Assembly: GCA_964494655.1 (NCBI GenBank) | Contig: CAZBRM010000004.1 | Coordinates: 1 to 41,427 of the forward strand | Direction of reading: 5' to 3' | Source: an uncultured Candidatus Saccharibacteria bacterium | GTDB lineage: Bacteria > Patescibacteriota > Minisyncoccia > Portnoybacterales > UBA2143 | DNA: 41,427 nt | In this document: positions 1 to 28,820 of the stretch, one piece after another | Layout: the number at the start of each line of letters is the position of its first letter | Numbering within the stretch: position 1 is the stretch's first letter | Notes under the pieces: model-generated | Seen by the model: only the letters and a program-made list of their open reading frames with translations | Databases searched by the model: none | What the model was told of the DNA's origin: nothing | Made by a program: the position numbers and the translations under genes

Positions 1-437
1 ATATTTCTTAATTTATCTTTAAAATTAAAAATTCTTTGAAAAAACCAATTTCCTTGATTTTGATTAATTAATTCAATTTGTGGATAATAGCTAACTAAAT
101 AAATTTTATCTTTAGCTAGATATTCTTGGTAATCAAAATCTTCAAATACAGCTGGTTCTTGTAATTTGCCAGATATCTCTAATTGATCGCCGTAATAATA
201 TTGAGGATATAACTCTGTAGTAATTAATATTTTACTGGAAATTTCTTTTGTTTTAAATTGAAACTTCTGTTGATTGATCCTTTGTTCTGGTTCTTCAATA
301 ATAATTCCCTTAAGATTAACTTCTTGATCATAATACTGGCTATTTTCTTGATTTGAGGAAGAAATAAAAAAAGAGTAAATAAAAACCCCGCCGATAAACA
401 AGAGACAGAGATAAAGAAAGATTTTAGAAGGAGTCAT
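1..437 (-). CDS. comEC: ComEC/Rec2-family competence protein, N-terminal part (gene runs off the window start)
   Basis: Minus-strand ORF from ATG at 437, absent from the ORF track because it is truncated. It reads MTPSKIFLYLCLLFIGGVFIYSFF (TM helix), then ...KILITTELYPQYYYGDQLEISGKLQEPAVFEDFDYQEYLAKDKIY, the usual pattern of the ComEC N-terminal domain. Confidence 0.55.
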   Translation of the reverse strand, partial: MTPSKIFLYLCLLFIGGVFIYSFFISSSNQENSQYYDQEVNLKGIIIEEPEQRINQQKFQFKTKEISSKILITTELYPQYYYGDQLEISGKLQEPAVFEDFDYQEYLAKDKIYLVSYYPQIELINQNQGNWFFQRIFNFKDKLRN

Positions 438-503
438 TAATTATATGATAGCATAAAAAATATTTAGCGTTACATTTACTTATTAAATTCAAGCCCTGCA
501 TAC

Positions 504-532
504 TTGACAAATACTGATAAAAATTCTATATT
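504..532 (+). promoter_or_regulatory. sigma70-type promoter of unit 0
   Basis: TTGACA 504-509, 17-nt spacer, TATATT 527-532. Confidence 0.6.
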
Positions 533-586
533 GTGAATATCCTAAAAAGTAGTTCATTTTATAATAAACATATGATTGGAGGGGGT

Positions 587-955
587 ATGAAAAAATTAAG
601 CATTATGGATATTAGCGTATCGGCTATTGCGTTAACTATCCTTAGCATCTGGATCGTTTTTGAAAAAGTATTCAAATTTTTCAGCAAATGTAGAATGAAG
701 AAAATCACCGAAATTGAAAAACTAGATGATGCTATAGTGTTTAAAAATGGGCATCGTCATTTATTTACATTAGAAAAAGATGGAAAATACGCAATAAATA
801 TTTCCAGTAGTGGTGTAATAGCTTTTTTATACTTCGGATGTTCCTTGGAAAATGATTACCATGTATTTCGCATTTCACATAAAATCTTGAGAAGACTAAA
901 AGAGATTCTAACTCCATCTAATTTTATGTACGAGCAAGGTCTATACCGGCTATAA
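587..955 (+). CDS. unit 0 cargo: hypothetical protein with N-terminal TM anchor (122 aa)
   Basis: ATG at 587 lies after GGAGGGGG (578-585). The track start at 533 lies inside the promoter/leader. MKKLSIMDISVSAIALTILSIWIVF is hydrophobic. Composition is AT-rich like the host. Confidence 0.6.
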   Translation: MKKLSIMDISVSAIALTILSIWIVFEKVFKFFSKCRMKKITEIEKLDDAIVFKNGHRHLFTLEKDGKYAINISSSGVIAFLYFGCSLENDYHVFRISHKILRRLKEILTPSNFMYEQGLYRL

Positions 956-986
956 CAAAACTTAAAATCTCTCCTGAAAAATCCAA

Positions 987-1030
987 AGAGCTGGTTCAAC
1001 GCAATGTTGTTCTGGCTCTTTTCTTTTCCT
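987..1030 (+). terminator. intrinsic terminator of unit 0 (family X)
   Basis: AGAGCTGG...CTGGCTCT stem followed by TTTCTTTTCC. Confidence 0.6.
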
Positions 1031-1232
1031 AAAATCTAATTACCTCTGTAAATTCCATACTATCTAACAGAACAGTCAGCCGAAGCTGGAGCGCCAATCA
1101 TGAGAATATAAAGAATTAAAAGAGAAATGACAAAATAAAAGGCCTGTTGCCGCCAAAGCCCAATCCCTAAAGCTAAAAAGAGCAATATTTGCGTCATAAT
1201 AATCATGTGGATGGAAGATATGGACTAAATCA
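1031..1232. repeat. long inter-cassette repeat, copy 1 (direct repeat of 5507-5710)
   Basis: AAAATCTAATTACCTC...GCGTCATAATAATCATGTGGATGG is nearly identical to 5507-5710 at an offset of 4476 bp. It replaces the short AAATTGTAGCTATAGAGTTATAGG block. Confidence 0.9.
1060..1206 (-). CDS. 48-aa hydrophobic small ORF inside long repeat copy 1
   Basis: MIIMTQILLFLALGIGLWRQQAFYFVISLLILYILMIGAPASADCSVR has two TM-like segments. It is below the track cut-off and has no clear SD or promoter. It is conserved in copy 2 with mostly synonymous changes. Confidence 0.4.
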   Translation of the reverse strand: MIIMTQILLFLALGIGLWRQQAFYFVISLLILYILMIGAPASADCSVR

Positions 1233-1261
1233 TTGACAAATTAAACTGGGTATGATATAAT
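1233..1261 (+). promoter_or_regulatory. consensus promoter of unit 1
   Basis: TTGACA 1233-1238, 17 nt, TATAAT 1256-1261. Confidence 0.7.
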
Positions 1262-1294
1262 ATAAACATTAACAATTAAATAGGAGGAAATGAA

Positions 1295-1618
1295 ATGAAT
1301 ATTTATGTTAGTGAATCGGTTTCTGAGGTAGTAGATGGCTTGAGGGCTCAAGAGATTCCGGGAATCAACGTTGACTATACGTCTGAACCAGAAGATCCCG
1401 AGAATCCTAATGGGTATGTTGTGCTAAAGAATAAACCTTATGATATTATAGCGGTTGTATCAAGTGTGATTCGCTGGAGGAAGGTTCAGCCGGATTGGGG
1501 ACATCCTAAACAAGCGAAAGCTTGCATTCAGATTCTCTCTTTGGCTCGCAAAATGGAGCTTGAAGGGTCCATAAGGGAAAAAGCGAAAAATCTCTTTTTC
1601 TTTATTAAGGAAGATTAA
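1295..1618 (+). CDS. unit 1 cargo: hypothetical acidic protein (107 aa)
   Basis: AGGAGG 1282-1287 lies 7 nt before the ATG. There is no recognisable family. Confidence 0.65.
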   Translation: MNIYVSESVSEVVDGLRAQEIPGINVDYTSEPEDPENPNGYVVLKNKPYDIIAVVSSVIRWRKVQPDWGHPKQAKACIQILSLARKMELEGSIREKAKNLFFFIKED

Positions 1619-1672
1619 GTAAATTCTTTAAGAGCCAGAGCTGGCTGACTGACATTCTATTCAATCATACTT

Positions 1673-1710
1673 AAGCCGCTGGGTCTTCGGACTTAACGGC
1701 TTTTTCTATT
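1673..1710 (+). terminator. intrinsic terminator of unit 1 (family Y, UUCG loop)
   Basis: AAGCCGCTGGGTC-TTCG-GACTTAACGGCTT followed by TTTTCTATTCC. Confidence 0.65.
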
Positions 1711-1712
1711 CC

Positions 1713-1765
1713 AAAATTATAGCTATGGAGTAAGTGGTATATGTATTAGAAATATGTCTAAATCA
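1713..1765. repeat. inter-cassette block, copy A (diverged)
   Basis: AAAATTATAGCTATGGAGTAAGTGGTATATGTATTAGAAATATGTCTAAATCA aligns to the AAATTGTAGCTATAGAGTTATAGG...ATATG..TAAA block. Confidence 0.7.
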
Positions 1766-1794
1766 TTGACAAATTAAACTAGATATGATAATAT
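1766..1794 (+). promoter_or_regulatory. promoter of unit 2
   Basis: TTGACA 1766-1771, 17 nt, TAATAT 1789-1794. The spacer is nearly identical to that of unit 1. Confidence 0.65.
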
Positions 1795-1800
1795 ATAAAT

Positions 1801-1989
1801 ACTTGGAAAGTTACCTAGCGAACTTCCATATTATCAAGCGGACAGCTGGGCCTTCCGAAAGACGTTTCCCGGTCTTCGGAGGGTATAACAGGGATTTTCC
1901 TAAGCGGGAAAAGTGTCCACTGCTTAAGGAGAACGTTAGGACACTACTTCCCCGAGTGAACTTAGAGTAGCTCGGGGATTTTCTTTTCC
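1801..1989 (+). ncRNA. unit 2 cargo: candidate structured ncRNA (~185 nt), family unknown
   Basis: There is no SD and no ATG downstream of the predicted TSS. Stems: TGGAAAGTT/AACTTCCA; CCTTCCGAAAGAC/GTCTTCGGAGGG; TTTTCC/GGAAAA; GTGTCC/GGACAC; and the terminator CCCCGAG/CTCGGGG. Ends are approximate. Confidence 0.5.
1950..1989 (+). terminator. intrinsic terminator of unit 2
   Basis: CCCCGAG-N14-CTCGGGG followed by ATTTTCTTTTCC. Confidence 0.65.
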
Positions 1990-1990
1990 C

Positions 1991-2042
1991 AAATTGTAGC
2001 TATAGAGTTATAGGTATGTGTGTTAGAGATATGAGTTAAACA
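1991..2042. repeat. inter-cassette block, copy B
   Basis: AAATTGTAGCTATAGAGTTATAGGTATGTGTGTTAGAGATATGAGTTAAACA. Confidence 0.85.
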
Positions 2043-2070
2043 TTGACAAAATATATGTATATGGTATGAT
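2043..2070 (+). promoter_or_regulatory. promoter of unit 3
   Basis: TTGACA 2043-2048, 16 nt, TATGAT 2065-2070. Confidence 0.55.
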
Positions 2071-2125
2071 AAGGATACAAATTAAATAGTTCTTAATCTT
2101 TTAACAACTAAATCAGGAGGGAAAA

Positions 2126-3004
2126 ATGGAAAAGGTAAGGGTTATATTACATGTAATGTTTGGAGGTGGCTCAAATGATTCTCATTATGGCGCTAATGGT
2201 TATGTACATCTAGAACTACAGGAAAAAGCGGGGGTCGAAATCGATTTCGTGTCTTTCTCCGGAACGTATCTTCACGGCAACGACCTTGAACGTTTCCTAA
2301 GAGAATGCGAAGATGCTCAGGTTATCGTTCTTGATGCCTGGAACCATCCGTTAAACAAAGATTATGGTAGCCGAGAATGGAACGATCCTCATGAGAGTAT
2401 GGCTAGAATCGCTAGACAAATATCAAGGATAAACCCCTCAGCGCAAATTTTCGCCGATCTTATGGAAAGCTTTAACAAAGTCGCTGTTCACGAAATTGCG
2501 GAACCAATCAAAACATGGACAGATAAAAAAATCGTTGGGGCGATTAAACGAAGCGTATTCAAAAAAGGTCAGCCTACGGTTTTAGTCTTTGACGACACCG
2601 AGAAACATCAGGACGCAGCAGACGAACAGCTTTCCGCCTACAATCTCGTTATCGCTAGAACCTACGATAAAGCTGAAACACTTATCGCCAAAAAAAGATT
2701 CGATTACGTCCTACTCGATCTCCTGGTTCCGGCCAGCGATAAAACTCTGGGGTCAAAAGGAAAAAAGTATGTCGGACAAGAAATGCCTCTCACGCCGCTA
2801 CTTGCTTTCCTGGCTCTTAAACAGGGAATTAAGAAGATTGGCATTCTTACCGACGCAAACCATCATGATCATCCAGCTTCTGCTGCTGTCGACATTTTCG
2901 GAAGCCCATTCGTCATAGGCAATGCCAAGATACAGATTTCTAACCGTGGCGTTACTTCAGAAGGAGTCAAAGACTGGAAAGGTTTGATGGATCAACTCAA
3001 TTAA
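2126..3004 (+). CDS. unit 3 cargo: hypothetical 292-aa protein; the C-terminal half has a CheY-like receiver-fold pattern
   Basis: AGGAGGG 2115-2121 lies before the ATG. TVLVFDD...FDYVLLDLLVP...IGILTD resembles receiver beta1/beta3/beta4 signatures. The N-terminal half also looks flavodoxin-like (RVILHVMFGGG, AQVIVLDAW). The fold call is tentative. Confidence 0.7.
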   Translation: MEKVRVILHVMFGGGSNDSHYGANGYVHLELQEKAGVEIDFVSFSGTYLHGNDLERFLRECEDAQVIVLDAWNHPLNKDYGSREWNDPHESMARIARQISRINPSAQIFADLMESFNKVAVHEIAEPIKTWTDKKIVGAIKRSVFKKGQPTVLVFDDTEKHQDAADEQLSAYNLVIARTYDKAETLIAKKRFDYVLLDLLVPASDKTLGSKGKKYVGQEMPLTPLLAFLALKQGIKKIGILTDANHHDHPASAAVDIFGSPFVIGNAKIQISNRGVTSEGVKDWKGLMDQLN

Positions 3005-3023
3005 GTTCTATAATCTCAACTAA

Positions 3024-3061
3024 AAGAGCCGGAATAAACAATCGTTCTGGCTTTTTTTCTT
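3024..3061 (+). terminator. intrinsic terminator of unit 3 (family X)
   Basis: AAGAGCCGG...CTGGCTTTT stem running into TTTTTTTCTTTCC. Confidence 0.6.
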
Positions 3062-3066
3062 TCCCT

Positions 3067-3118
3067 AAAACCGTGCTATAGACATAGTGGCATGTGGATG
3101 AAAGATATGTCTAAATCC
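3067..3118. repeat. inter-cassette block, copy C (variant)
   Basis: AAAACCGTGCTATAGACATAGTGGCATGTGGATGAAAGATATGTCTAAATCC. It is closest to copy G. Confidence 0.8.
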
Positions 3119-3146
3119 TTGACAAATTATATCAGTATGTTATAAT
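3119..3146 (+). promoter_or_regulatory. promoter of unit 4
   Basis: TTGACA 3119-3124, 16 nt, TATAAT 3141-3146. Confidence 0.7.
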
Positions 3147-3183
3147 GTAAACAATATTAACAATTAAATAAGAGGAGAAGACA

Positions 3184-3525
3184 ATGGCATCAATACCAAA
3201 AGAGGACATTCCAAAGACAGCCGAAGCAATCAGTAAAGCAATTCCAGAAAAAAATCGTTACGACAAGCCAATTTGGCAAGGAGTTCTCAAGCTCATTGAG
3301 GAAAGTGAATTCGGCAAGAAGAATGCGCAATCTGATATCGTATCTCCATTGCCCGAGGGCAGAAGCGAGACGGAAGAGATGATGTCTGGCAGTTTTGATG
3401 GGGTGCAAATAGAAATGATGAGATTCTGCAATTCTGTTCTTGGCAGTTGTGGATCCGTTTCGATGGAGCCATACACGGCAGGATTGGGCACACGTTCAAT
3501 GACTCTTACGTTCGAAGCCAATTAA
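3184..3525 (+). CDS. unit 4 cargo: hypothetical protein (113 aa)
   Basis: AGAGGAG lies before the ATG. The leader ACAATATTAACAATTAAATAAGAGGAG is homologous to those of units 1 and 8. No family is recognised. Confidence 0.65.
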   Translation: MASIPKEDIPKTAEAISKAIPEKNRYDKPIWQGVLKLIEESEFGKKNAQSDIVSPLPEGRSETEEMMSGSFDGVQIEMMRFCNSVLGSCGSVSMEPYTAGLGTRSMTLTFEAN

Positions 3526-3527
3526 TC

Positions 3528-3593
3528 AGAGGCCAGTTAACCTCTCTCGCAAAAAGAAGAGGTCAAATAAATATACTGGCCTCTTTTCTTTTG
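3528..3593 (+). terminator. intrinsic terminator of unit 4 (family X, long)
   Basis: AGAGGCCAG (3528-3536) pairs with CTGGCCTCT (3576-3584), with an inner ACCTCT/AGAGGT stem, then TTTTCTTTTG. Confidence 0.6.
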
Positions 3594-3595
3594 TT

Positions 3596-3647
3596 AAATT
3601 GTAGCTATAGAGTTATAGGCATGTGGATGAGGAGTATGATTTAAAGA
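3596..3647. repeat. inter-cassette block, copy D
   Basis: AAATTGTAGCTATAGAGTTATAGGCATGTGGATGAGGAGTATGATTTAAAGA. Confidence 0.85.
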
Positions 3648-3677
3648 TTGACAGATTATAGATTGGTGTGGTATAAC
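3648..3677 (+). promoter_or_regulatory. promoter of unit 5
   Basis: TTGACA 3648-3653, 18 nt, TATAAC 3672-3677. Confidence 0.55.
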
Positions 3678-3683
3678 CATGAT

Positions 3684-3703
3684 ATCGTAAAACGGTTTAC
3701 GAT
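3684..3703 (+). promoter_or_regulatory. perfect hairpin in the unusually long leader of unit 5
   Basis: ATCGTAAA-ACGG-TTTACGAT forms an 8-bp stem. A second stem, ATCTG/CAGAT, lies just downstream. Confidence 0.45.
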
Positions 3704-3765
3704 CTACCAGTTATCTGATAGTCCAGATATTTAAAAACTTCAAATCTTACTAAAGGAGGGTAAAA

Positions 3766-4137
3766 ATGACTAAAAAAGCTAACGAGGAGAAGGCCAAACT
3801 TAAGGAATTGTGGATATTGTTATTTGAAGAACCACAAAGCTTAAGTAATGAGCAAATCACACGTTTACTTGAAGCGGAAAAAGAGCTTCAAGATGTCGTA
3901 TACTATGTCTATCATCGGTTTCCAGAAATGATGAAGGAAGTCCAAAGGTATTGGGCGAGAAAAAACGAGCTGTCTCAATTGCCTATTGAGGAATTACAAG
4001 AAAAGATGCAAAAAATATCGAATAGAAGAGCATCTATTCTGAAAAGCGTACCTGATGAAGAACTCAGTGATTCATTTTTTGAATCTTCACTTCTCGATTC
4101 TGATGAAAATATCCTCTATGAGCTTTTGAAAGAATGA
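3766..4137 (+). CDS. unit 5 cargo: hypothetical acidic, probably helical protein (123 aa)
   Basis: AAAGGAGGG lies before the ATG. The protein is rich in E/K/L. No family is recognised. Confidence 0.65.
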   Translation: MTKKANEEKAKLKELWILLFEEPQSLSNEQITRLLEAEKELQDVVYYVYHRFPEMMKEVQRYWARKNELSQLPIEELQEKMQKISNRRASILKSVPDEELSDSFFESSLLDSDENILYELLKE

Positions 4138-4163
4138 GACACAAGAGTCTAACTCTTAATATT

Positions 4164-4200
4164 AAGCCACCAGTCTTCGGACTTGGTGGCTTTTTTCTTT
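4164..4200 (+). terminator. intrinsic terminator of unit 5 (family Y, UUCG loop)
   Basis: AAGCCACCAGTC-TTCG-GACTTGGTGGCTT followed by TTTTCTTT. Confidence 0.7.
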
Positions 4201-4203
4201 TCT

Positions 4204-4256
4204 AAATTGTAGCTATAGAGTTATAGGCATGTGGATGAGGGATATGGGTTATATCC
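4204..4256. repeat. inter-cassette block, copy E
   Basis: AAATTGTAGCTATAGAGTTATAGGCATGTGGATGAGGGATATGGGTTATATCC. Confidence 0.85.
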
Positions 4257-4285
4257 TTGACGGAATGTGTGTATATGTGTATAAT
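4257..4285 (+). promoter_or_regulatory. promoter of unit 6
   Basis: TTGACG 4257-4262, 17 nt, TATAAT 4280-4285. Confidence 0.65.
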
Positions 4286-4332
4286 GATGGTATAATTAAA
4301 TAGAATTCAAATCTGAAAAAAGGAGGGTAAAA

Positions 4333-4584
4333 ATGGAAATCATATTTAACGAAGAAGAAGCAGTGTCTTGGGGTGATCCAGATGATCCTAGGAATACCCC
4401 AGAAAAGCTGGTTGAACGTAGAAGAGCTGGTCTCATTAAGCTGGGAGAATTCGTGGGAGCCGAAAGGATAGAATTTGTCCCGGAACATAAAAGGGATATT
4501 TATATCCTTACAAAAGGCGGAAAGAAATTATCGATTATCGCCAGAGGAAACGGGTTTGACGGAGGATGGCTTGAAGTAGAATAA
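4333..4584 (+). CDS. unit 6 cargo: hypothetical protein (83 aa)
   Basis: AAGGAGGG lies before the ATG. The leader ...CAAATCT...AAAGGAGGGTAAAAATG is homologous to that of unit 5. Confidence 0.65.
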   Translation: MEIIFNEEEAVSWGDPDDPRNTPEKLVERRRAGLIKLGEFVGAERIEFVPEHKRDIYILTKGGKKLSIIARGNGFDGGWLEVE

Positions 4585-4618
4585 TCTGATTTTCTTCAAC
4601 TGCCTATCTAATTAATTA

Positions 4619-4658
4619 AAGGGTCAGTTCGGTAAACGTTCTGGCTCTTTTCTATTCC
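4619..4658 (+). terminator. intrinsic terminator of unit 6 (family X)
   Basis: GGGTCAG...CTGGCTC stem (with G-U pairs) followed by TTTTCTATTCC. Confidence 0.55.
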
Positions 4659-4660
4659 CT

Positions 4661-4713
4661 AAATTGTAGCTATAGACATATAGGTATATGGATAAGGAAT
4701 ATGAATTAAACTC
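4661..4713. repeat. inter-cassette block, copy F
   Basis: AAATTGTAGCTATAGACATATAGGTATATGGATAAGGAATATGAATTAAACTC. Confidence 0.85.
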
Positions 4714-4742
4714 TTGACAAATCTATTCACATATAATAATAT
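4714..4742 (+). promoter_or_regulatory. promoter of unit 7
   Basis: TTGACA 4714-4719, 17 nt, TAATAT 4737-4742. Confidence 0.6.
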
Positions 4743-4748
4743 TATAAT

Positions 4749-4857
4749 AATTGGATGTAAATTTGTGCCACCGGTCAAAGAACGTATAAGGCACGGAGCA
4801 CTTACAACATCCATACAATAATATAAAGGGTCAAGGCAAAGCTTTGACCTTTTTTTT
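4749..4857 (+). ncRNA. unit 7 cargo: candidate small structured RNA (~110 nt), family unknown
   Basis: There is no SD and no ORF. A long irregular hairpin is formed by GGATGT...GTGCC-loop-GGCAC...ACATCC, followed by the terminator. Ends are approximate. Confidence 0.5.
4829..4857 (+). terminator. intrinsic terminator of unit 7
   Basis: GGTCAAGGC-AAA-GCTTTGACC followed by a run of 8 T. Confidence 0.75.
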
Positions 4858-4908
4858 ATTCCTATGTATTAGTCTATAATAAATAACCTGCTTTTTTCTT
4901 TTCCTCCC
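4858..4908 (+). other. collapsed or empty unit remnant
   Basis: ATTCC-TATGTATTAG-TCTATAATAAATAA-CCTGCTTTTTTCTTTTCC contains fragments of block copy A, a TATAAT and half a terminator, with no cargo between them. Confidence 0.35.
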
Positions 4909-4961
4909 AAAACCATGCTATAGACATAGTGGTATGTGGATGAGGAATATGGGCTTAATCA
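4909..4961. repeat. inter-cassette block, copy G (variant)
   Basis: AAAACCATGCTATAGACATAGTGGTATGTGGATGAGGAATATGGGCTTAATCA. Confidence 0.8.
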
Positions 4962-4990
4962 TTGACTTTTAATATTTTGTGTTGTATGGT
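4962..4990 (+). promoter_or_regulatory. promoter of unit 8
   Basis: TTGACT 4962-4967, 17 nt, TATGGT 4985-4990. Confidence 0.5.
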
Positions 4991-5026
4991 AGAGACAACA
5001 TTAACAATTGAATAAGGAGATAAGAA

Positions 5027-5446
5027 ATGGATAAGGAAATGAAAGAAAGGATTAAGGAGAATCTTAGTTTGATCGGCAAAAGAGAAAAAACTGGAAATTG
5101 GAGCAAACTCATCAATGTCCACGATAATGTTTGGGGACATGCTGATAACATTAGGGGCAACATCTTAAACATCTGGGACAACATCTCAAACATTAGGGGC
5201 GACGTCTCAAACATCAGGGGCAACGTCTCAAGAATCAGTGGCGACGTCACAAACATCTGGGGCGACGTCTCAAACATCAGGGGCGACATCTCAGATATCA
5301 GTGGCTACTTCTCAAGAATCAGTGGCGACGTCACAAACATCTGGGGCGACGTCTCAGATATCAGTGGCTACGTCTCAAGAATCAGTGGCGACGTCACAAA
5401 CATCAGTGGCGACGTCTCAGATATTATCAAAGTCCTCGAAGATTAG
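5027..5446 (+). CDS. unit 8 cargo: heptad-repeat protein (139 aa)
   Basis: AAGGAG lies before the ATG. Residues 37-134 are 14 tandem heptads with consensus G-D-V-S-N-I-(R/W/S). Confidence 0.7.
   Translation: MDKEMKERIKENLSLIGKREKTGNWSKLINVHDNVWGHADNIRGNILNIWDNISNIRGDVSNIRGNVSRISGDVTNIWGDVSNIRGDISDISGYFSRISGDVTNIWGDVSDISGYVSRISGDVTNISGDVSDIIKVLED
5135..5428 (+). repeat. 14 x 21-bp tandem repeat inside the unit 8 CDS, with a 63-bp super-period
   Basis: GGCGACGTCTCAAACATCAGG-type units. Units 8-10 and 11-13 are nearly identical triplets. Other frames on both strands stay open across it. Confidence 0.9.
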
Positions 5447-5468
5447 GGATTAGAAGGCAAACTACAAG

Positions 5469-5500
5469 AGGCTGACTCAACAAGAGTTGGCCTTTTTTCT
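5469..5500 (+). terminator. intrinsic terminator of unit 8 (family X)
   Basis: AGGCTGACTC-AACAA-GAGTTGGCCT followed by TTTTTCTATTC. It is close to the unit 10 terminator. Confidence 0.65.
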
Positions 5501-5506
5501 ATTCTC

Positions 5507-5710
5507 AAAATCTAATTACCTCCTCAAATTCCATACTATCCCACAGAACAGTCAGCCGAAGCTGGAGCGCCAATCATGAGGATATAAAGAATTAAAAGAG
5601 AAATGACAAAATAAAAGGCCTGTTGCCGCCAAAGCCCAATCCCTAAAGCTAAAAAGAGCAATATTTGCGTCATAATAATCATGTGAATGGTAGAAATATG
5701 TCTAAATCCA
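5507..5710. repeat. long inter-cassette repeat, copy 2 (direct repeat of 1031-1232)
   Basis: Nearly identical to copy 1 across the ORF48 segment and more diverged at both ends. Confidence 0.9.
5536..5682 (-). CDS. 48-aa hydrophobic small ORF, copy 2
   Basis: Same ORF as 1060-1206. There are three nucleotide differences: two synonymous (Ile, Val) and one R-to-G change at the last codon. Confidence 0.4.
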   Translation of the reverse strand: MIIMTQILLFLALGIGLWRQQAFYFVISLLILYILMIGAPASADCSVG

Positions 5711-5745
5711 TTGACATTAATTATTTTTTACTACATGCTATTATT
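5711..5745 (+). promoter_or_regulatory. promoter region of unit 9 (TTGACA kept, probable extended -10)
   Basis: TTGACA is at 5711-5716, but there is no -10 at 16-18 nt. TGCTATTAT at 5737-5745 fits an extended -10 (TGnTATAAT). Confidence 0.4.
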
Positions 5746-5781
5746 AAAAGTAGTTCTTAATATATAAAGGAGGAGGATGCA

Positions 5782-6033
5782 ATGGAACAAGAAATTTTTG
5801 AAATTATAAAAAATTCTCAAATATTACCAGAAATGCTGATTTTATTTGGCACTACAATCCTTATAACTACTTCTGCATGGACACTCTTATTTCCTATTGG
5901 AAAAGGAAAATATCTTGTTTCGTCATGGTATTACTTTTGGAGAATTATGCTCTTTGGAATGTTTGCTTCTTTTCTTTTGGTACTTACTGTTATAGTTGCT
6001 GCTTATATACAATGTTCTTTTAAGAGCATATAG
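5782..6033 (+). CDS. unit 9 cargo: small membrane protein, 2-3 TM (83 aa)
   Basis: AAAGGAGGAGG lies before the ATG. Hydrophobic stretches include LILFGTTILITTSAWTLLF and IMLFGMFASFLLVLTVIVAAYI. Composition is AT-rich like the host. No terminator precedes the next gene. Confidence 0.6.
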   Translation: MEQEIFEIIKNSQILPEMLILFGTTILITTSAWTLLFPIGKGKYLVSSWYYFWRIMLFGMFASFLLVLTVIVAAYIQCSFKSI

Positions 6034-6085
6034 CTTGACACGAAATATCTTTTCTAACTATTAGACAAAAAGGAGGGTTATAAAA

Positions 6086-6379
6086 ATGGAGATTAGAGTT
6101 GTTTTAGACTTACCGGGACTGACAATGAAGAAAATTTTTGATGTGCCCAAGGAATTAGTTCCTAGAAAGGACGATGGGGTTAAATTTTGGGAAGAAAAAA
6201 GAAAAGACGCCGTTATGTTGGGTTATGCAACTGCTTTTTCGGTAACACGTGACCTAACTCAGGAAGATAAGCCTCCGATAGAGGTTTTTCTTAAGCCGGA
6301 GAGTGATGATTTAACCAAAGCGTGTCTGGAAGAATTTGAGAGGGTACTATCAAAACAAGGCTGGCAAATCCAGCGTTAA
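6086..6379 (+). CDS. unit 10 cargo: hypothetical protein (97 aa)
   Basis: AAAGGAGGG lies before the ATG. A weak TTGACA is at 6035-6040. It may be co-transcribed with unit 9. Confidence 0.6.
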   Translation: MEIRVVLDLPGLTMKKIFDVPKELVPRKDDGVKFWEEKRKDAVMLGYATAFSVTRDLTQEDKPPIEVFLKPESDDLTKACLEEFERVLSKQGWQIQR

Positions 6380-6400
6380 ATCTTTTTGCCGAGTCAACGA

Positions 6401-6436
6401 AGAGGCCGACTCAACGCAGTTGGCCTCTTTTTATTT
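6401..6436 (+). terminator. intrinsic terminator of unit 10 (family X)
   Basis: AGAGGCCGAC-TCAACGCA-GTTGGCCTCT forms a 10-bp stem, followed by TTTTATTTCC. Confidence 0.7.
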
Positions 6437-6439
6437 CCC

Positions 6440-6469
6440 AAATTGTAGCTATAGAGTTATAGGTATGTG
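6440..6469. repeat. terminal half-copy of the inter-cassette block (copy H)
   Basis: AAATTGTAGCTATAGAGTTATAGGTATGTG is identical to copy B up to ATGTG. After that the sequence is unique (CATTCCCGAGACGG). Confidence 0.85.
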
Positions 6470-6598
6470 CATTCCCGAGACGGCAGTGATATGCCTTGTT
6501 CCAGTAATATTTAATTTTTCTTTTAAAACCATTCCAAAACCATGCCTTAGAAAGATGAACAGGCGTGATAGTGCGTCCTCTTGCTCAAAACCAGGCAT
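6449..6598 (-). CDS. 49-codon ORF translationally coupled to cobO, ending inside repeat copy H
   Basis: The ATG overlaps the cobO stop (TAATG). The product is MPGFEQEDALSRLFIFLRHGFGMVLKEKLNITGTRHITAVSGMHIPITL. It is below the track cut-off and its coding status is unproven. Confidence 0.35.
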   Translation of the reverse strand: MPGFEQEDALSRLFIFLRHGFGMVLKEKLNITGTRHITAVSGMHIPITL

Positions 6599-7104
6599 TA
6601 GAACTCGATTCCTTTTCTTGGTTTTATTGCTTTAGTGTAATAATGTTTAATTTCTTTCATTTCTGTAACTAAATCTGCTGCTTGAATAAGTTTTTTAGAA
6701 GCGTTACGGCCAGTTAGGACGAGCTCTGTTTTTGACGAAGTTTCTTTTATTAATTCCAGAATATCTTTTACTTTAATTAAGTCAAAGTAATTTACCATAT
6801 TCATTTCATCCAAAATTATTAAGTCGTATTTTTTACTTTTAATTGCTTTTTGGGCAAAATTAAAACCTTGACTTGCAAGGTTAAAATCTTTTTTTAATAA
6901 TTTACCTTTACTGACAAATCCTTTTCTGCCAAAGATTTTTACTTCAAAATTCTTTATTTTTTTAATCGCCTCTATTTCTGAACTCTTACCGTCTTTCAAA
7001 AACTGAATTAATAAAACTTTTTTACCAGCGCCTACAGATCGTAAACCAAGACCCAAAGCTGCAGTTGTTTTGCCTTTTGCATCACCTGTATAAATTTGAA
7101 GCAT
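6598..7104 (-). CDS. cobO: cob(I)yrinic acid a,c-diamide / cob(I)alamin adenosyltransferase (CobA/CobO/BtuR family)
   Basis: P-loop YTGDAKGKTTAALG, and ILDEMNMV...LVLTGR typical of the family. Confidence 0.8.
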   Translation of the reverse strand: MLQIYTGDAKGKTTAALGLGLRSVGAGKKVLLIQFLKDGKSSEIEAIKKIKNFEVKIFGRKGFVSKGKLLKKDFNLASQGFNFAQKAIKSKKYDLIILDEMNMVNYFDLIKVKDILELIKETSSKTELVLTGRNASKKLIQAADLVTEMKEIKHYYTKAIKPRKGIEF

Positions 7105-7116
7105 GTTAATTATAAA

Positions 7117-10100
7117 TTATACATTACAAGTCGGACAGCTTCCAGGAGGCAAATCTGGAATATCAGGCGAAGGATCACGCAATTCAGGAGAAACATCTTT
7201 TTCTTTAACCATTTTCTTATCTGCTTTTGGCAAAGATCCTTGCTCTTTACCTTTAATATTTAAAACTTGCTGTTTTCTGCTTTCGTTTCTGTAAAAAGTT
7301 ACACCCTTGCATCCTAAATCATAAGACATAATATATGCTTTTCTAATATCGTCTTCTGAAGCGGAATAAGGAAAATTAATTGTCTTACTTGTGGCATTAT
7401 CAACATATTTTTGAAAAGCTGCCTGCATTTTTATATGATCCTCCGGCTTAATATCTAAAGCAGTAACAAAAATCTTTTTTATATCAGTTGGAATTTCTTT
7501 AATATCCTGAATACTTCCTTTTCTTGAAATTTCTTCAATAAGTTTTTTAGACCAAAAACCTCGTTCTTTGGCTATTTCTTCAAAAATAGAATTAACTTCA
7601 ACTAATTCTTGATCGCCTAAAACATGTTTTCTAGTATAAGCGACAGCAAAAAGCGGTTCAATAGCTGATGAGGCGCCAGCAATAATACCTATTGTTCCTG
7701 TTGGAGCAATTGTAGTTATAGTCGCATTCCTAACTTTAGGCATATTTTTTTCATTATAAATACTATCTTTTAAATTAGGAAAAACTTCTCTTTGCTCAGC
7801 TAATCCAACTGATGCTTTTCTGCCTTCTTCTTGAATAAATTTCATCACACTTTTACCAACCATTAGCGCTTTTCTGGAATTATACGGAATCCTTAACCTG
7901 ATAAGCATATCTGTAAAACCCATTACGCCTAAACCTATTTTCCTATTCCCTCTAGTTAATTTTTCTATTTCAGGCAGAGGATAACGATTAACTTCAATAA
8001 CATTATCTAAAAAATGAACTGCGTTAATAGTTGTTTGCTTAAGCTTGTCCCAATCAATTTCCCAGATTTTTGACCGAGCAGTTTTTTTCTTAATTATTTT
8101 GCTTAAATTGATACTACCTAAGTTACAGCTCTCGAAAGGAAGCAATGGCTGCTCCCCGCATTGTCGACTGATGATTCCACTCATTAAAGGTTTTTTAGAT
8201 AATTTAGTTTTGCCATTAGGTTTAGTGATATAAGCAACAGTATGAAATTCATCTACGGTGATATTATAAACATCTTCATTGCCATAAAATTTTATAGATT
8301 TAACTTTATGATTATGCATTATCAACTCTTCTCTGAAAGCATTATAGCCACCAAAAGTACTCCTTAAATCTCCAGAATAACCAAAATTATTTACATATTT
8401 CTTAAACTCTAAATAATTAGGCATATTTCTTTTTTCTTTGATAAATTTGATCCCTAATTTATAAAGTTCTCTCCTCAATTTATCTCTGTTTTTCTTTTTT
8501 GCATCAATAACACTATCTGTATTTCTAATACTATTAACATAGCTAGCTCTACAGGATCTTGAACAAAAACTCTTATTTATATTTTCTTTATATATTATTT
8601 CCTTACTACATTTTAAGCACGCCGACTTAATATAAGAATAGATAGTTTTTGATTTACTTATTTTTTCTTTAATTTCAGGATGTTTCTTATATAGTTCAAT
8701 AATTCTTAAACTTTGATCTTTTCTATTTTTAGGATTTTTAAAATACAAACTAGTTAAATCGCCAATTAATTTTTTTGTTGTCTCTCTATGCTTTCGACCA
8801 AACATGCCATTCCCCTTGCCAGATTTTAATTTACTCATCTTTTCTCTATAAATATCTTTTTCTTGATCTGATAATTTTTGCCACCATTTTCCTTTCATTA
8901 TATTTTGTTCTCCAGTTTGATGTAAACTATCATGAGCGCTTTGGCTCATAACTTCTAAATTCTTAATATCATTATCCAGCCCATTAAAATTTTTATGATG
9001 AACTACTTCGTTTGGATATTTCTTAATCTTTCTGCCAAGTAAAAGCTCCGCAATCATTCTATGCTCGGATTTAGCTCTTTTACCATTATTTTGTGTTATC
9101 CCCCAATAAACACAATTTTTCCTAGTCGCTGTATATTGAAACTTATTAAAAGGCATCAAGCTTACACCTGGTTTTAAATCTTTCAATTTAACATCATTAT
9201 TTTTTCTATCTTTAAATTTATGATCTTCAGTAGCAATCAGATAACTATTATCATCAAAGACAACTTTCCAAACAGGAACATTAGTTCTTGTTTTCCTTGG
9301 ATTTCGTCCCATTCGAATTTGCACTTTTCCATTACCATAACAATATACTGGAATATCTTTTTTTTCTTTAACCAATTGTTTTATTGAAACACAATTTCTA
9401 CCATCAGCCACACCTACCAAGGTATCTCCAACTACGCATGGATTAGTGCTTTCTATCTTACCTAATTTTGGAGTTGGATTGTCTCTATTAATTCTGTCAA
9501 TGAAAATAACTCCTGGCTCTCCATTTTTCCACGCATAATCAACAATTAAATCAAAAACCATATTAGCGTCTAATTGGCCTGAAATTTGACCGTCTCGAGG
9601 ATTTATTAAATTATATTTCTTCTTCTTTTTAACCGCCTCCATAAATTCATCAGTCAAAGCAACGGAAATATTAAAATTATTTAAAACCCCTTCTTCTGAT
9701 TTAGCTGTAATAAATTCCAATATATCGGGATGATCAACATTTAAAATTCCCATATTAGCTCCACGTCTTTTGCCGCCCTGTTTTATTACATCAGTAGCCG
9801 CATTAAAAACACTCATAAAAGACAATGGACCAGAAGAAGCTCCTTGAGTTGATTTAATATTATCTCCCCTTGGGCGCAAATGAGAGAAATTAAAACCTGT
9901 ACCGCCACCACTTTTGTGAACCAAAGCGGTATTTTTAATTGCTTCAAAAATTTCCTCCATTGAATCACCTACTGGGAGAACAAAACAACCACTAAGTTGC
10001 TGGAGTACGCCTCCAGCATTCATTAATGTTGGAGAATTAGGTAAAAATTCCAAAGATGCCATCATTTTATAGAATTTTTCGCCAATATCAAAAAGTTCAT

Positions 10101-10599
10101 CATCTGAAATTGAAGGATTAAAAAACGACTCAGCTGAAGCAATATTAGCGGCTACCCGCTGAAATAATTGCTGAGGCGTTTCAATTATTTTTCCTTGTTC
10201 ATCTTTTTTTAAATATCTTGATTCAAGAACTTTTAAGGCATTAGGCATGAGCTTTGTTTTTACATTACGGCTTAAAAGCCACCACTTAGCATCTCTAAGC
10301 TCTTTTCTTTTTTGACGATAAAGACCGTATAACTCCGCAATATCTTTTTGGCCTTCTTTAGCTAATGTTTCAATAACTACATCCTGAAGTTGTTCTACTT
10401 TTGGGATTTCTTCTTTAAAACGCTTATTTAGAATTTCAACTACACTATTAGAAATTTTTTGGGCTAATTTTTTATCCTCTTTTCCTCCCGCCTGAAGAGC
10501 TTTTAAAATAGCTTCTGTAATTTTAACTTGATTAAAATTAACGATTCTACCATCTCTTTTTTTAACACTCTGTATATATTTTACATTCTTTTTAGACAT
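7117..10599 (-). CDS. nrdJ: adenosylcobalamin-dependent (class II) ribonucleotide reductase with N-terminal ATP-cone, interrupted by an intein
   Basis: ATP-cone KKRDGRIVNFNQVKITEAI. RNR core motifs are present. The finger loop ESTNP-[intein]-CGEQPLLPFESCNLGS is split. The C-terminus carries a CPTC pair. Confidence 0.9.
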   Translation of the reverse strand: MSKKNVKYIQSVKKRDGRIVNFNQVKITEAILKALQAGGKEDKKLAQKISNSVVEILNKRFKEEIPKVEQLQDVVIETLAKEGQKDIAELYGLYRQKRKELRDAKWWLLSRNVKTKLMPNALKVLESRYLKKDEQGKIIETPQQLFQRVAANIASAESFFNPSISDDELFDIGEKFYKMMASLEFLPNSPTLMNAGGVLQQLSGCFVLPVGDSMEEIFEAIKNTALVHKSGGGTGFNFSHLRPRGDNIKSTQGASSGPLSFMSVFNAATDVIKQGGKRRGANMGILNVDHPDILEFITAKSEEGVLNNFNISVALTDEFMEAVKKKKKYNLINPRDGQISGQLDANMVFDLIVDYAWKNGEPGVIFIDRINRDNPTPKLGKIESTNPCVVGDTLVGVADGRNCVSIKQLVKEKKDIPVYCYGNGKVQIRMGRNPRKTRTNVPVWKVVFDDNSYLIATEDHKFKDRKNNDVKLKDLKPGVSLMPFNKFQYTATRKNCVYWGITQNNGKRAKSEHRMIAELLLGRKIKKYPNEVVHHKNFNGLDNDIKNLEVMSQSAHDSLHQTGEQNIMKGKWWQKLSDQEKDIYREKMSKLKSGKGNGMFGRKHRETTKKLIGDLTSLYFKNPKNRKDQSLRIIELYKKHPEIKEKISKSKTIYSYIKSACLKCSKEIIYKENINKSFCSRSCRASYVNSIRNTDSVIDAKKKNRDKLRRELYKLGIKFIKEKRNMPNYLEFKKYVNNFGYSGDLRSTFGGYNAFREELIMHNHKVKSIKFYGNEDVYNITVDEFHTVAYITKPNGKTKLSKKPLMSGIISRQCGEQPLLPFESCNLGSINLSKIIKKKTARSKIWEIDWDKLKQTTINAVHFLDNVIEVNRYPLPEIEKLTRGNRKIGLGVMGFTDMLIRLRIPYNSRKALMVGKSVMKFIQEEGRKASVGLAEQREVFPNLKDSIYNEKNMPKVRNATITTIAPTGTIGIIAGASSAIEPLFAVAYTRKHVLGDQELVEVNSIFEEIAKERGFWSKKLIEEISRKGSIQDIKEIPTDIKKIFVTALDIKPEDHIKMQAAFQKYVDNATSKTINFPYSASEDDIRKAYIMSYDLGCKGVTFYRNESRKQQVLNIKGKEQGSLPKADKKMVKEKDVSPELRDPSPDIPDLPPGSCPTCNV
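8161..9438 (-). mobile_element. 426-aa intein with an HNH homing-endonuclease module, inserted before the catalytic Cys of NrdJ (residues 388-813)
   Basis: Block A CVVGDTLV; block B ATEDH; HNH VVHHKNFNGLDNDIKNLEVMSQSAHDSLH; NUMOD3-like NGMFGRKHRETTKKLI; Cys4 CLKC...CSRSC; block F VYNITVDEFHTVAY. It ends ...SGIISRQ followed by extein Cys. Confidence 0.85.
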
Positions 10600-28733: not shown

Positions 28734-28820
28734 GGGGATGTGCTGGAATTGGCAGACAGGATGGTCTCAAACACCATTGGACGCAAGTCCGTGAGGGTTC
28801 AACTCCCTCCATCCCCACCA
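28734..28820 (+). tRNA. tRNA-Leu (anticodon CAA), CCA encoded
   Basis: Acceptor GGGGATG/CATCCCC; anticodon arm ATGGT-CTCAAAC-ACCAT; long variable arm GGACGCAAGTCC; T arm GAGGG-TTCAACT-CCCTC; 3' ACCA. Confidence 0.9.

Follow-up and report, generated by a model that had tools for sequence, protein, structure and literature searches.

Repeats between comEC and cobO in a Patescibacteria contig as probable hybrid attachment sites of large serine recombinase elements

The DNA analysed here (the window) comprises 41,427 nucleotides (nt) from an uncultured Candidatus Saccharibacteria bacterium of the GTDB lineage Patescibacteriota; Minisyncoccia; Portnoybacterales; UBA2143 (contig CAZBRM010000004.1 of assembly GCA_964494655.1, positions 1 to 41,427). 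Between the competence gene comEC and cobO it holds an array of about ten units, all on the plus strand and all built on one plan: a conserved repeat of about 80 nt, a near-consensus sigma-70 promoter, a ribosome-binding site with a small, unrelated open reading frame (ORF) or else a short structured transcript, and a terminator. A sequence-only reading of this DNA had noted that the repeats break at one CATGTG core, and had proposed serial site-specific insertion at the 3' end of a 49-codon ORF (ORF49) next to cobO. The present analysis indicates that the core is probably the crossover point of an attachment (att) site which lies inside comEC and is used by temperate phages or elements of Patescibacteria that carry a large serine recombinase (LSR), and that the repeats are hybrid att sites. 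The window organism is represented by this one contig only, and an exact-protein look-up of cobO gave a single match, the 1-kb unitig L001; comparisons were made with contigs of relatives, referred to below by L numbers, and with their proteins (P numbers).

Coincident breakpoints at one core inside comEC

The core, more precisely written YATRTG, was found in ten copies, starting at 1204, 1738, 2015, 3091, 3620, 4228, 4685, 4933, 5680 and 6464. Four kinds of flank meet at this point, namely L (the left arm), R (the right arm, on the promoter side), X (the ORF49 side) and Y (the body of a 48-codon ORF). A profile built from 27 repeats matched the internal copies end to end (E 1e-13 to 1e-21), Y-type copies (1204, 5681) only from profile position 42/43, which is the core start, and L-core-X copies in other genomes only to position 50/51. 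The copy at 6464 is identical to the internal consensus at 29 of 30 positions left of the centre, compared with 8 of 30 on the right, and the homology therefore ends at 6469. The profile search gave no repeat copies outside 1204-6498 in the 41-kb window, and all copies lie on one strand. Coincident breakpoints were found in the window and at more than ten other junctions, and over 20 independent contigs of other assemblies show these junctions again, which rules out chance. The results demonstrate that the breakpoints are coincident rather than scattered, as had been claimed for CATGTG, and that the claim holds for the slightly wider core.

A dispersed miniature repeat resembling miniature inverted-repeat transposable elements or repetitive extragenic palindromes, multiplied between the genes of a variable region, would also be short, AT-rich and intergenic, and an assembly chimera would agree with the breaking of contigs near the repeat. 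Both are scarcely credible here, as the copies are confined to the array (1204-6498) and always in one orientation, the junctions hold comEC fragments cut at one dinucleotide, and the same architecture is seen in many independent assemblies from JGI, ENA, NCBI and Logan. A tRNA-targeting island or tycheposon-like array was likewise rejected, the only tRNA of the window being at 28734-28820 and the repeats carrying comEC-type arms.

ORF49 (6598-6449, minus strand) exists as described, with an ATG that overlaps the cobO stop (TAATG) and last codons (IPITL and stop) inside the repeat, and the 48-codon ORFs do open at the core, on the minus strand, in each of the two long repeats (1016-1221 and 5492-5697, 94% identical). 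Alone, ORF49 matched the Pfam family Competence over positions 13-35 with 19.5 bits, below the gathering threshold of 23, and the 48-codon ORF alone gave no Competence match. When ORF49 up to its His codon was fused to the 48-codon ORF, a single collinear Competence match was obtained (positions 13-77, 43.6 bits, E=3e-11). The fusion point, marked by a slash, is the His codon of the ComEC motif ...GTRHI(V/T)A(I/V)SGMH/MIIMTQ..., and the 48-codon ORFs carry the 42 comEC codons that come after the piece in ORF49. The Y fragment matched ComEC residues 198-236 at 87% in tblastn, and the two Y copies of the window show 80-84% DNA identity to native comEC of relatives, including L004 and L007, which is the same level as for the flanking comEC N-terminus. 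ORF49 consists of a start codon coupled to cobO, about 65 nt that are unalignable and the last ~64 nt before the crossover; the last 87 nt of its region (X plus the start of L) show 82-87% DNA identity to the comEC 5' halves of L035 and L037.

The relatives hold both the core and an uninterrupted site, Y-core-X being present in the intact comEC of L004, L007, L008, L022 and L033. Judged by these alignments, X and Y are the two comEC half-sites of one site, and ORF49 appears to be an internally deleted stump of an ancestral comEC that once followed cobO, not a gene. It had been taken for a target gene with a regenerated 3' end; its tail is instead the L arm read in the comEC frame. The target is not the 3' end of a gene or tRNA but an internal comEC site, at the His codon of the SGMH motif. 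Of the earlier proposal, site-specific serial insertion at a short core stands, given one core, several unrelated flanks and, in relatives, an empty site and serial events; the target and the chemistry proposed with it do not.

In serine integrases, attP and attB contain the same distal motif, placed 5 bp closer to the centre in attB, which is about 10 bp shorter (PMC3783163); according to work cited in that paper, the orientation of LSR reactions is set only by the central dinucleotide. In every one of the 51 L arms, a corresponding 12-mer of L (ATTGTAGCTATA) has its start at -26. The best match to it was located at -21 in all six native comEC left (A) arms, in 5 of 9 native right (B') arms, where this offset also had the top mean, in 6 of 10 junction X arms and in 17 of 31 R arms, compared with about one expected by chance over the 29 possible offsets. 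The arms share descent, so these counts are not independent, though the offset is nonetheless equal in four classes. The 47 sites at which L is joined to R or X have TG as their central dinucleotide, those at which it is joined to the comEC 3' half have CA, and all switches of partner occur at ATG-TG/CA-NAT. The results demonstrate a half-site architecture in which, by offset and dinucleotide, L is P-type and X, Y and R are B-type. The chromosomal attB reads, on the sense strand, ATTGTAGCTATA-N5-CATG-CA-YATG-N5-TATGACTCAAAT, centred on the His codon of SGMH. Read in this way, the internal repeats would be hybrid sites, attL-type in the comEC sense, the L-TG-X junction beside cobO would be the attL of a first integration into the comEC formerly located after cobO, and the Y-TG-R sites would be attB-like. 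Treating the repeat as an inverted comEC site, by local alignment and longest common substring, gave a weak signal (z ~3.4, for L004 alone, with overlapping sense and antisense distributions) and was replaced by the 12-mer offset test. A conserved L-arm hairpin (CTATA-GAGT-TATAG) was also considered and dropped, being lost in variant copies.

Serine recombinases, prophages and displaced comEC halves in relatives

LSR genes are linked to the comEC site. Full-length LSR homologues (521-542 amino acids (aa), with the domains Resolvase, Recombinase and Zn_ribbon_recom; 49-81% identical) lie just upstream (0.04-2.5 kb) of a comEC 3' half in four of the four cases looked up (L038/39, L040, L042/43 and L044), and L044 also encodes a large terminase. 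In L032, comEC is split at the same point by an element of about 9 kb, with genes for a primase zinc-ribbon, DUF5659, DUF5681, HTH_17 and Recombinase + Zn_ribbon_recom proteins; counting this element, whose LSR is interrupted, the linkage extends to five independent elements. The same contig combines an upstream array of hybrid sites, the comEC 5' half, the prophage and the comEC 3' half in one place. In the elements whose arm is picked up by the profile (L032, L038/39, L040, L044), the junction is L-CA-(C/T)ATGATTATTATGA..., with L in the comEC sense; in L042/43 the repeat profile gave no arm, and a P-type arm with 12 + 10 + 4 spacing was read by eye. Among PDB structures the LSR matched a single one, 4KIS, that of the A118 integrase. 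Beside the LSR lies a small HTH_17 gene (61-62 aa), the product of which is a candidate directionality factor only.

The most complete arrangement is found on a 97-kb contig, syntenic with the window, on which L029 and L038 overlap. Its order is ftsA, ftsZ, the ribonucleotide reductase gene, cobO, parB, a comEC 5' half (197 aa), A-CA-rc(L), where rc denotes the reverse complement, two antisense cassettes bounded by complete hybrid sites (S', consisting of L arm, TG and R arm), methylases, DUF5659, HTH_17, the LSR, L-CA-B' and the comEC 3' half (240 aa). From its junctions, this appears to be a canonical serine-integrase prophage, with attP predicted as L-CA-rc(L), attL as A-CA-rc(L) and attR as L-CA-B'; the P/P' junction is seen directly in L023. 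The cargo beside L-TG-X in relatives (L017 2335-7610; L029 10602-11645) includes defence-like genes, which encode two DNA methylases, a protein that has a Shedu SduA_C-like domain and a Schlafen/AlbA_2 protein that has a restriction-endonuclease-like one. Scans of viral contigs gave no matches to the repeat pattern and one to the comEC-site pattern, a chance match in a giant-virus bin; two matches of the genome scan (L005 and L006) and three of the metagenome scan (L009, L019 and L025) were discarded as due to chance.

Serial stumps of comEC are a recurrent feature of the relatives. With the ComEC N-terminus of the window as query, 16 proteins were returned, seven of which (P0001, P0005, P0006, P0008, P0009, P0011 and P0012) are complete ComEC N-halves of 196-224 aa ending in ...SGMH, and six of these seven continue into a repeat tail (IPITL, IPITP, KPITL, MPLCL or NPVP, all variants of L). 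L035 has a complete 200-aa comEC 5' half with a TAATG overlap on the cobO stop, and its end, ...AISGMH-IPITL and stop, runs into the L arm; the cobO end and ATG of the window align to this arrangement. The synteny of cobO, (parB) and a comEC 5' half is seen in both L029 and L035, and cobO is the original upstream neighbour of comEC. In L033/L035 the ribonucleotide reductase gene and cobO are followed by 5' half #1, a three-gene cargo (genes for a 799-aa protein, an APH-family kinase and a protein of the HIT family), 5' half #2 and three antisense cassettes, and then by the leader, an intact comEC (448 aa) and, after comEC, the metallo-beta-lactamase gene. L037 (1-5409) carries a 2.9-kb block of four small genes and a comEC 5' half twice in tandem, at 99.6% identity. 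In L008 the order is stump, one antisense cassette, leader and intact comEC; its stump, made of codons 1-34 and 176-194, and that of L034 (79 aa) are placed like ORF49, and in the syntenic relative L003 only a trace of the stump is left. At every locus examined, the S' sites are antisense to the adjacent or working comEC, as excision with a comEC-borne attR would require.

The LSR linkage, half-site spacing and dinucleotide fit a large serine recombinase and not the attI x attC chemistry that had been suggested earlier. Close to that suggestion is an integron-like or other tyrosine-recombinase cassette system, in which the repeats would behave like attC and the comEC site like attI. It would account for the single-gene cassettes in one orientation and for repeats of ~80 nt with a common short core; arrays without a nearby recombinase do exist, as in CALINs (clusters of attC sites lacking an integrase). 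Such a system is nevertheless highly improbable. The core (YATRTG) differs from GTTRRRY, the repeat lacks the imperfect palindrome that lets attC fold, and every cassette has its own promoter. No Phage_integrase gene was found in the window or beside the arrays examined, the sole one being at the far end of L042, and the polarity set by the dinucleotide, the half-site spacing and the five linked LSR genes favour serine chemistry. Inspection of 53 sites gave no attC cores (RYYYAAC ... GTTRRRY), and the arms are not mutually complementary. A Xer/dif, tyrosine or integron reading was also rejected because, by eye, there was no convincing match of core or arms to the dif or attC consensus and no tyrosine recombinase lies nearby.

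Layout and contents of the array

The features of the comEC-cobO interval, by position, strand and evidence, are as follows.

1..437, minus strand: 5' part (codons 1-145) of the presumed working comEC, running off the left end of the window (Pfam DUF4131, E=1.7e-19)
438..503, minus strand: comEC leader/promoter region, conserved with L003, L004, L007 and L008 to ~491
504..1015, plus strand: unit e0, with promoter 504-532, ORF 578-955 and then a terminator
1016..1077, unstranded: L2 sequence, copy 1, fused to comEC after codon ~236
1078..1207, minus strand: Y1 comEC fragment (codons ~195-236), body of the first 48-codon ORF and putative attB-type arm (tblastn; 80-83% DNA identity to native comEC of L004 and L007)
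1204..1242, plus strand: Y-TG-R junction 1, both arms putatively attB-type, central TG at 1208-1209 (profile match from position 42)
1698..4970, plus strand: seven complete putative hybrid S' sites (L arm, TG, R arm; nhmmer E=1e-14 to 1e-19)
1698-1774, 1978-2056, 3051-3132, 3580-3658, 4189-4263, 4645-4726 and 4896-4970, plus strand: the individual S' sites (profile, half-site spacing)
1295-1618, 2126-3004, 3184-3525, 3766-4137, 4333-4584, 5027-5446, 5782-6033 and 6086-6379, plus strand: cassette ORFs (ORF list)
~1800-1945 and 4748-4822, plus strand: ORF-less units (RNA folding)
5492..5553, unstranded: L2 sequence, copy 2, within the long repeat that is 94% identical to 1016-1221
5554..5683, minus strand: Y2 comEC fragment, which is the second 48-codon ORF (sequence comparison with comEC)
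5680..5718, plus strand: Y-TG-R junction 2, central TG at 5684-5685
6424..6469, plus strand: terminal L arm (putatively attP-type) and core, central TG at 6468-6469
6449..6598, minus strand: ORF49, the apparent deleted comEC stump, with X arm 6470-6598 and the tail IPITL and stop inside the L arm
6598..7104, minus strand: cobO (ATP:corrinoid adenosyltransferase; Pfam CobA_CobO_BtuR, E=9e-58)

The ComEC N-terminus of the window is 77% identical to the intact ComEC of L008, and the comEC leader abuts the first cassette without a recombination site between them, as it also does at the loci of relatives. Downstream of each S' site come a sigma-70-type promoter, a cassette and a terminator. The array (437-6598) has a G+C content of 35-41%, compared with 28-33% in the flanking chromosome. 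Beyond cobO lie the ribonucleotide reductase gene, ftsZ, ftsA and other housekeeping genes. The large subunit of the reductase (7117-10599) contains an intein with HNH and NUMOD3 motifs, in the place of which the L035 homologue has a LAGLIDADG intein. Assemblies tend to break around the duplicated comEC pieces: the window and L003, a contig of an independent metagenome-assembled genome (MAG), both stop inside comEC, ~140 nt short of the crossover and at points no more than 14 nt apart, and the Logan unitig L001 stops 51 nt into ORF49.

Searches of the cassettes with Pfam and PADLOC, and of the ORF-less units with Rfam, gave no informative family, and a single cassette is shared between the window and L003. 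The two ORF-less units, each with promoter and terminator, fold on the plus strand better than shuffled sequences (z = -2.7 for 1800-1945 and -3.5 for 4748-4822) and are candidate small-RNA cassettes on the basis of this folding. The protein of cassette 5027-5446 consists almost wholly of 7-residue (21-nt) tandem repeats (GDVSNIR-like), with diverged homologues in the arrays of L014 and L027. Comparison of window 437-1240 with L003 452-525 showed that unit e0 and the first Y module are extra in the window, either inserted there or deleted in L003; the difference ends at two TTGACA boxes, which suggests short-homology recombination between cassette promoters.

A second recurrent junction occurs in comEC after codon ~236 (..APASA/DCSVR and stop, the slash marking the break), where the gene is fused to the ~60-nt L2 sequence and GTTAG is shared at the break. 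The same junction is present in L036 (711-790, 82% identity) and in protein P0003, and it may be the attachment site of another element family. In addition, L002/L016, from the same MAG as L003, contains a second array, of two cassettes, at a locus other than comEC; it ends in L-TG-CATGCCATTGATG..., a weak pseudo-attB, and adjoins a 513-aa ORF judged by eye to resemble a class I aminoacyl-tRNA synthetase.

Proposed mechanism and comparison with known systems

Ordinary LSR reactions would suffice to build such a locus. A prophage would enter by attP x attB and leave by attL x attR, the circular form carrying an attP of the type …GAGTTATAGGYATG-CA/TG-CATRCCTATAACTC…, and any attL-type site in the right orientation could replace attL at excision. 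If a distant attL-type site were used, the prophage would carry off the intervening cassettes, plus the comEC leader and 5' half if the site lay upstream of comEC; if a nearer, internal site were used, cassettes would be left behind and a Y-TG-R (attB-like) junction made. The loaded element would integrate into a naive comEC and the phage proper would later excise via its own attL and attR, leaving the old 5' half with L as a stump, antisense (outward-facing) cassettes, the leader and a rebuilt working comEC. Repetition would stack such blocks, with the newest beside the working comEC and the oldest stump, ORF49, beside cobO. The newest unit had earlier been placed next to cobO; the polarity would thus be reversed, and in relatives the displaced 5' halves do pile up away from the working comEC. 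Unit e9, which has Y2-TG-R on one side and L-TG-X on the other, seems to reflect an event at the level of a cassette within an old comEC fragment. For the serial 5' halves, direct recombination of a circle by hybrid site x attB, which is non-canonical for serine integrases, and Campbell-type homologous integration were kept only as alternatives, because canonical attP x attB and attL x attR reactions with alternative attL sites explain the same structures.

Several points weigh against this account. The window, over its 41 kb, contains no recombinase gene, and any activity there must therefore come from an infecting or distant element. It also ends ~140 nt short of the crossover in its own comEC, a copy that is only presumed to be intact. 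The LSR of L032 has an in-frame TAA at the catalytic-serine motif (7760-7790), and this prophage may be locked in place through the stop codon. Outside the 12-mer offset test, the similarity between arms is weak in statistical terms. The attL x attR reaction of canonical LSRs depends on a directionality factor, for which there is here just the HTH_17 candidate. The uniform R arm and promoter before unrelated genes are not fully explained by the pick-up of cassettes, and the L2 junction at comEC codon ~236 is not accounted for. Finally, we infer the use of alternative attL sites by the LSR, as we do activity in the window organism and the order of events.

Some of these points would suit a more modest explanation, in which the outer L-TG-X is a serine-integrase scar whereas the internal repeats are inert. 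These would be modules of terminator and promoter, or old scars, that were spread and homogenised when natural transformation was followed by homologous recombination, gene conversion or unequal crossing-over, and the array would be a passive graveyard of phage morons. Selection for expression could indeed conserve the terminator tail and the near-consensus promoter that the repeats contain; the lack of a recombinase gene in the window and the uniform R arm and promoter also agree with it, as does the window/L003 deletion with its ends at two TTGACA promoter boxes. This explanation nevertheless appears unlikely. The repeats are P-type on the left and B-type on the right at the exact 5-bp offset, with an invariant TG in 47 sites from genomes that share only ~80% identity in their core genes; Y-TG-R and L-TG-X show that internal sites exchange partners exactly at the dinucleotide; and S' sites also occur within a resident prophage, beside its attL. 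A bolder extension of the comEC att-site reading, put forward only tentatively, is that the arrays form a working cassette platform on serine-integrase chemistry, with every inter-cassette repeat a live attL-type site. If true, each lysogeny cycle of a comEC-targeting phage could pick up, drop or reshuffle single-gene cassettes, which would move between cells together with a replacement comEC 5' half, so that the host keeps its DNA-uptake channel.

Prophages with serine integrases that split host genes reportedly include Listeria phage A118/phi10403S in comK, SPbeta in spsM and the skin element in sigK. The elements described here resemble A118-type prophages in several ways: the LSR has Recombinase and zinc-ribbon domains, attB lies within the coding part of a competence gene, attP exceeds attB by ~10 bp and has its distal motif displaced by 5 bp, the central dinucleotide sets orientation, and next to the integrase gene is a small HTH gene that may encode a directionality factor. 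They differ in the target, which is comEC and in Patescibacteria, in the array of hybrid att sites between single-gene cassettes, and in that many genomes keep a working comEC together with one or more displaced 5' halves instead of a simple split gene.

Tandem accretion at one LSR site is also known from composite islands of staphylococcal cassette chromosome (SCC/SCCmec) elements at rlmH (orfX), moved by the LSRs CcrAB/CcrC, where units with and without Ccr pile up in tandem (PMC6243372). The window likewise holds tandem, repeat-bounded units at one LSR site, with an att core in the repeats between them, and serial blocks are found in L033-L037; as in pseudo-SCC, many units are without their own recombinase, and restriction-modification and other accessory cargo occurs. 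In contrast, SCC inserts at the 3' end of rlmH and leaves it intact, whereas the comEC site is mid-gene and function is apparently kept via a new 5' half; the array units are mostly single genes (0.25-1.1 kb) with their own promoter and terminator, and the recombinase lies outside the array and belongs to phages, one of which has a terminase. With integrons and CALINs the array shares the small cassettes in one orientation, the unrelated and mostly unknown genes and the conserved recombination repeat, as well as the ability to exist with no recombinase beside it. The tyrosine recombinase of integrons acts on folded single-stranded attC, however, and not on a double-stranded hybrid serine-integrase site, core and architecture differ, and here the cassettes have their own promoters and there is no attI or Pc platform.

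The proposed pick-up is likened to specialised transduction and to the accretion of phage morons, as host DNA beside the prophage (the comEC 5' half and upstream cassettes) would travel, and as outward-facing, self-promoted accessory genes lie at the prophage end; unlike in specialised transduction, it would use legitimate secondary att sites at the exact dinucleotide and hence be repeatable and reversible. A full-text literature search, of incomplete coverage, found no account of an attachment site in comEC, of arrays like these or of Patescibacteria prophages with serine recombinases. New here are a site in the middle of a gene whose 5' half is serially replaced, and single-gene cassettes that lie between hybrid att sites.

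To our knowledge, almost nothing is known about the mobile-element biology of Patescibacteria (bacteria of the Candidate Phyla Radiation, CPR), in which ComEC is thought to be central to a scavenging lifestyle. If the proposed model is right, the sets of attB, attP and LSR are candidate tools for genetic manipulation of CPR bacteria, and small ORFs and truncated ComEC calls beside such arrays should be annotated with caution, as integration scars. A conserved phage attachment site and its integrase family would then have been identified in these bacteria, and the repeated use of a mid-gene integration site without loss of the gene would be explained. Serine-integrase reactions and chromosomal hybrid att sites could then build integron-like arrays of self-expressed accessory genes, and, if the platform is indeed a working one, it would be a functional analogue of the integron, derived from another recombinase family, in bacteria that depend on DNA uptake.

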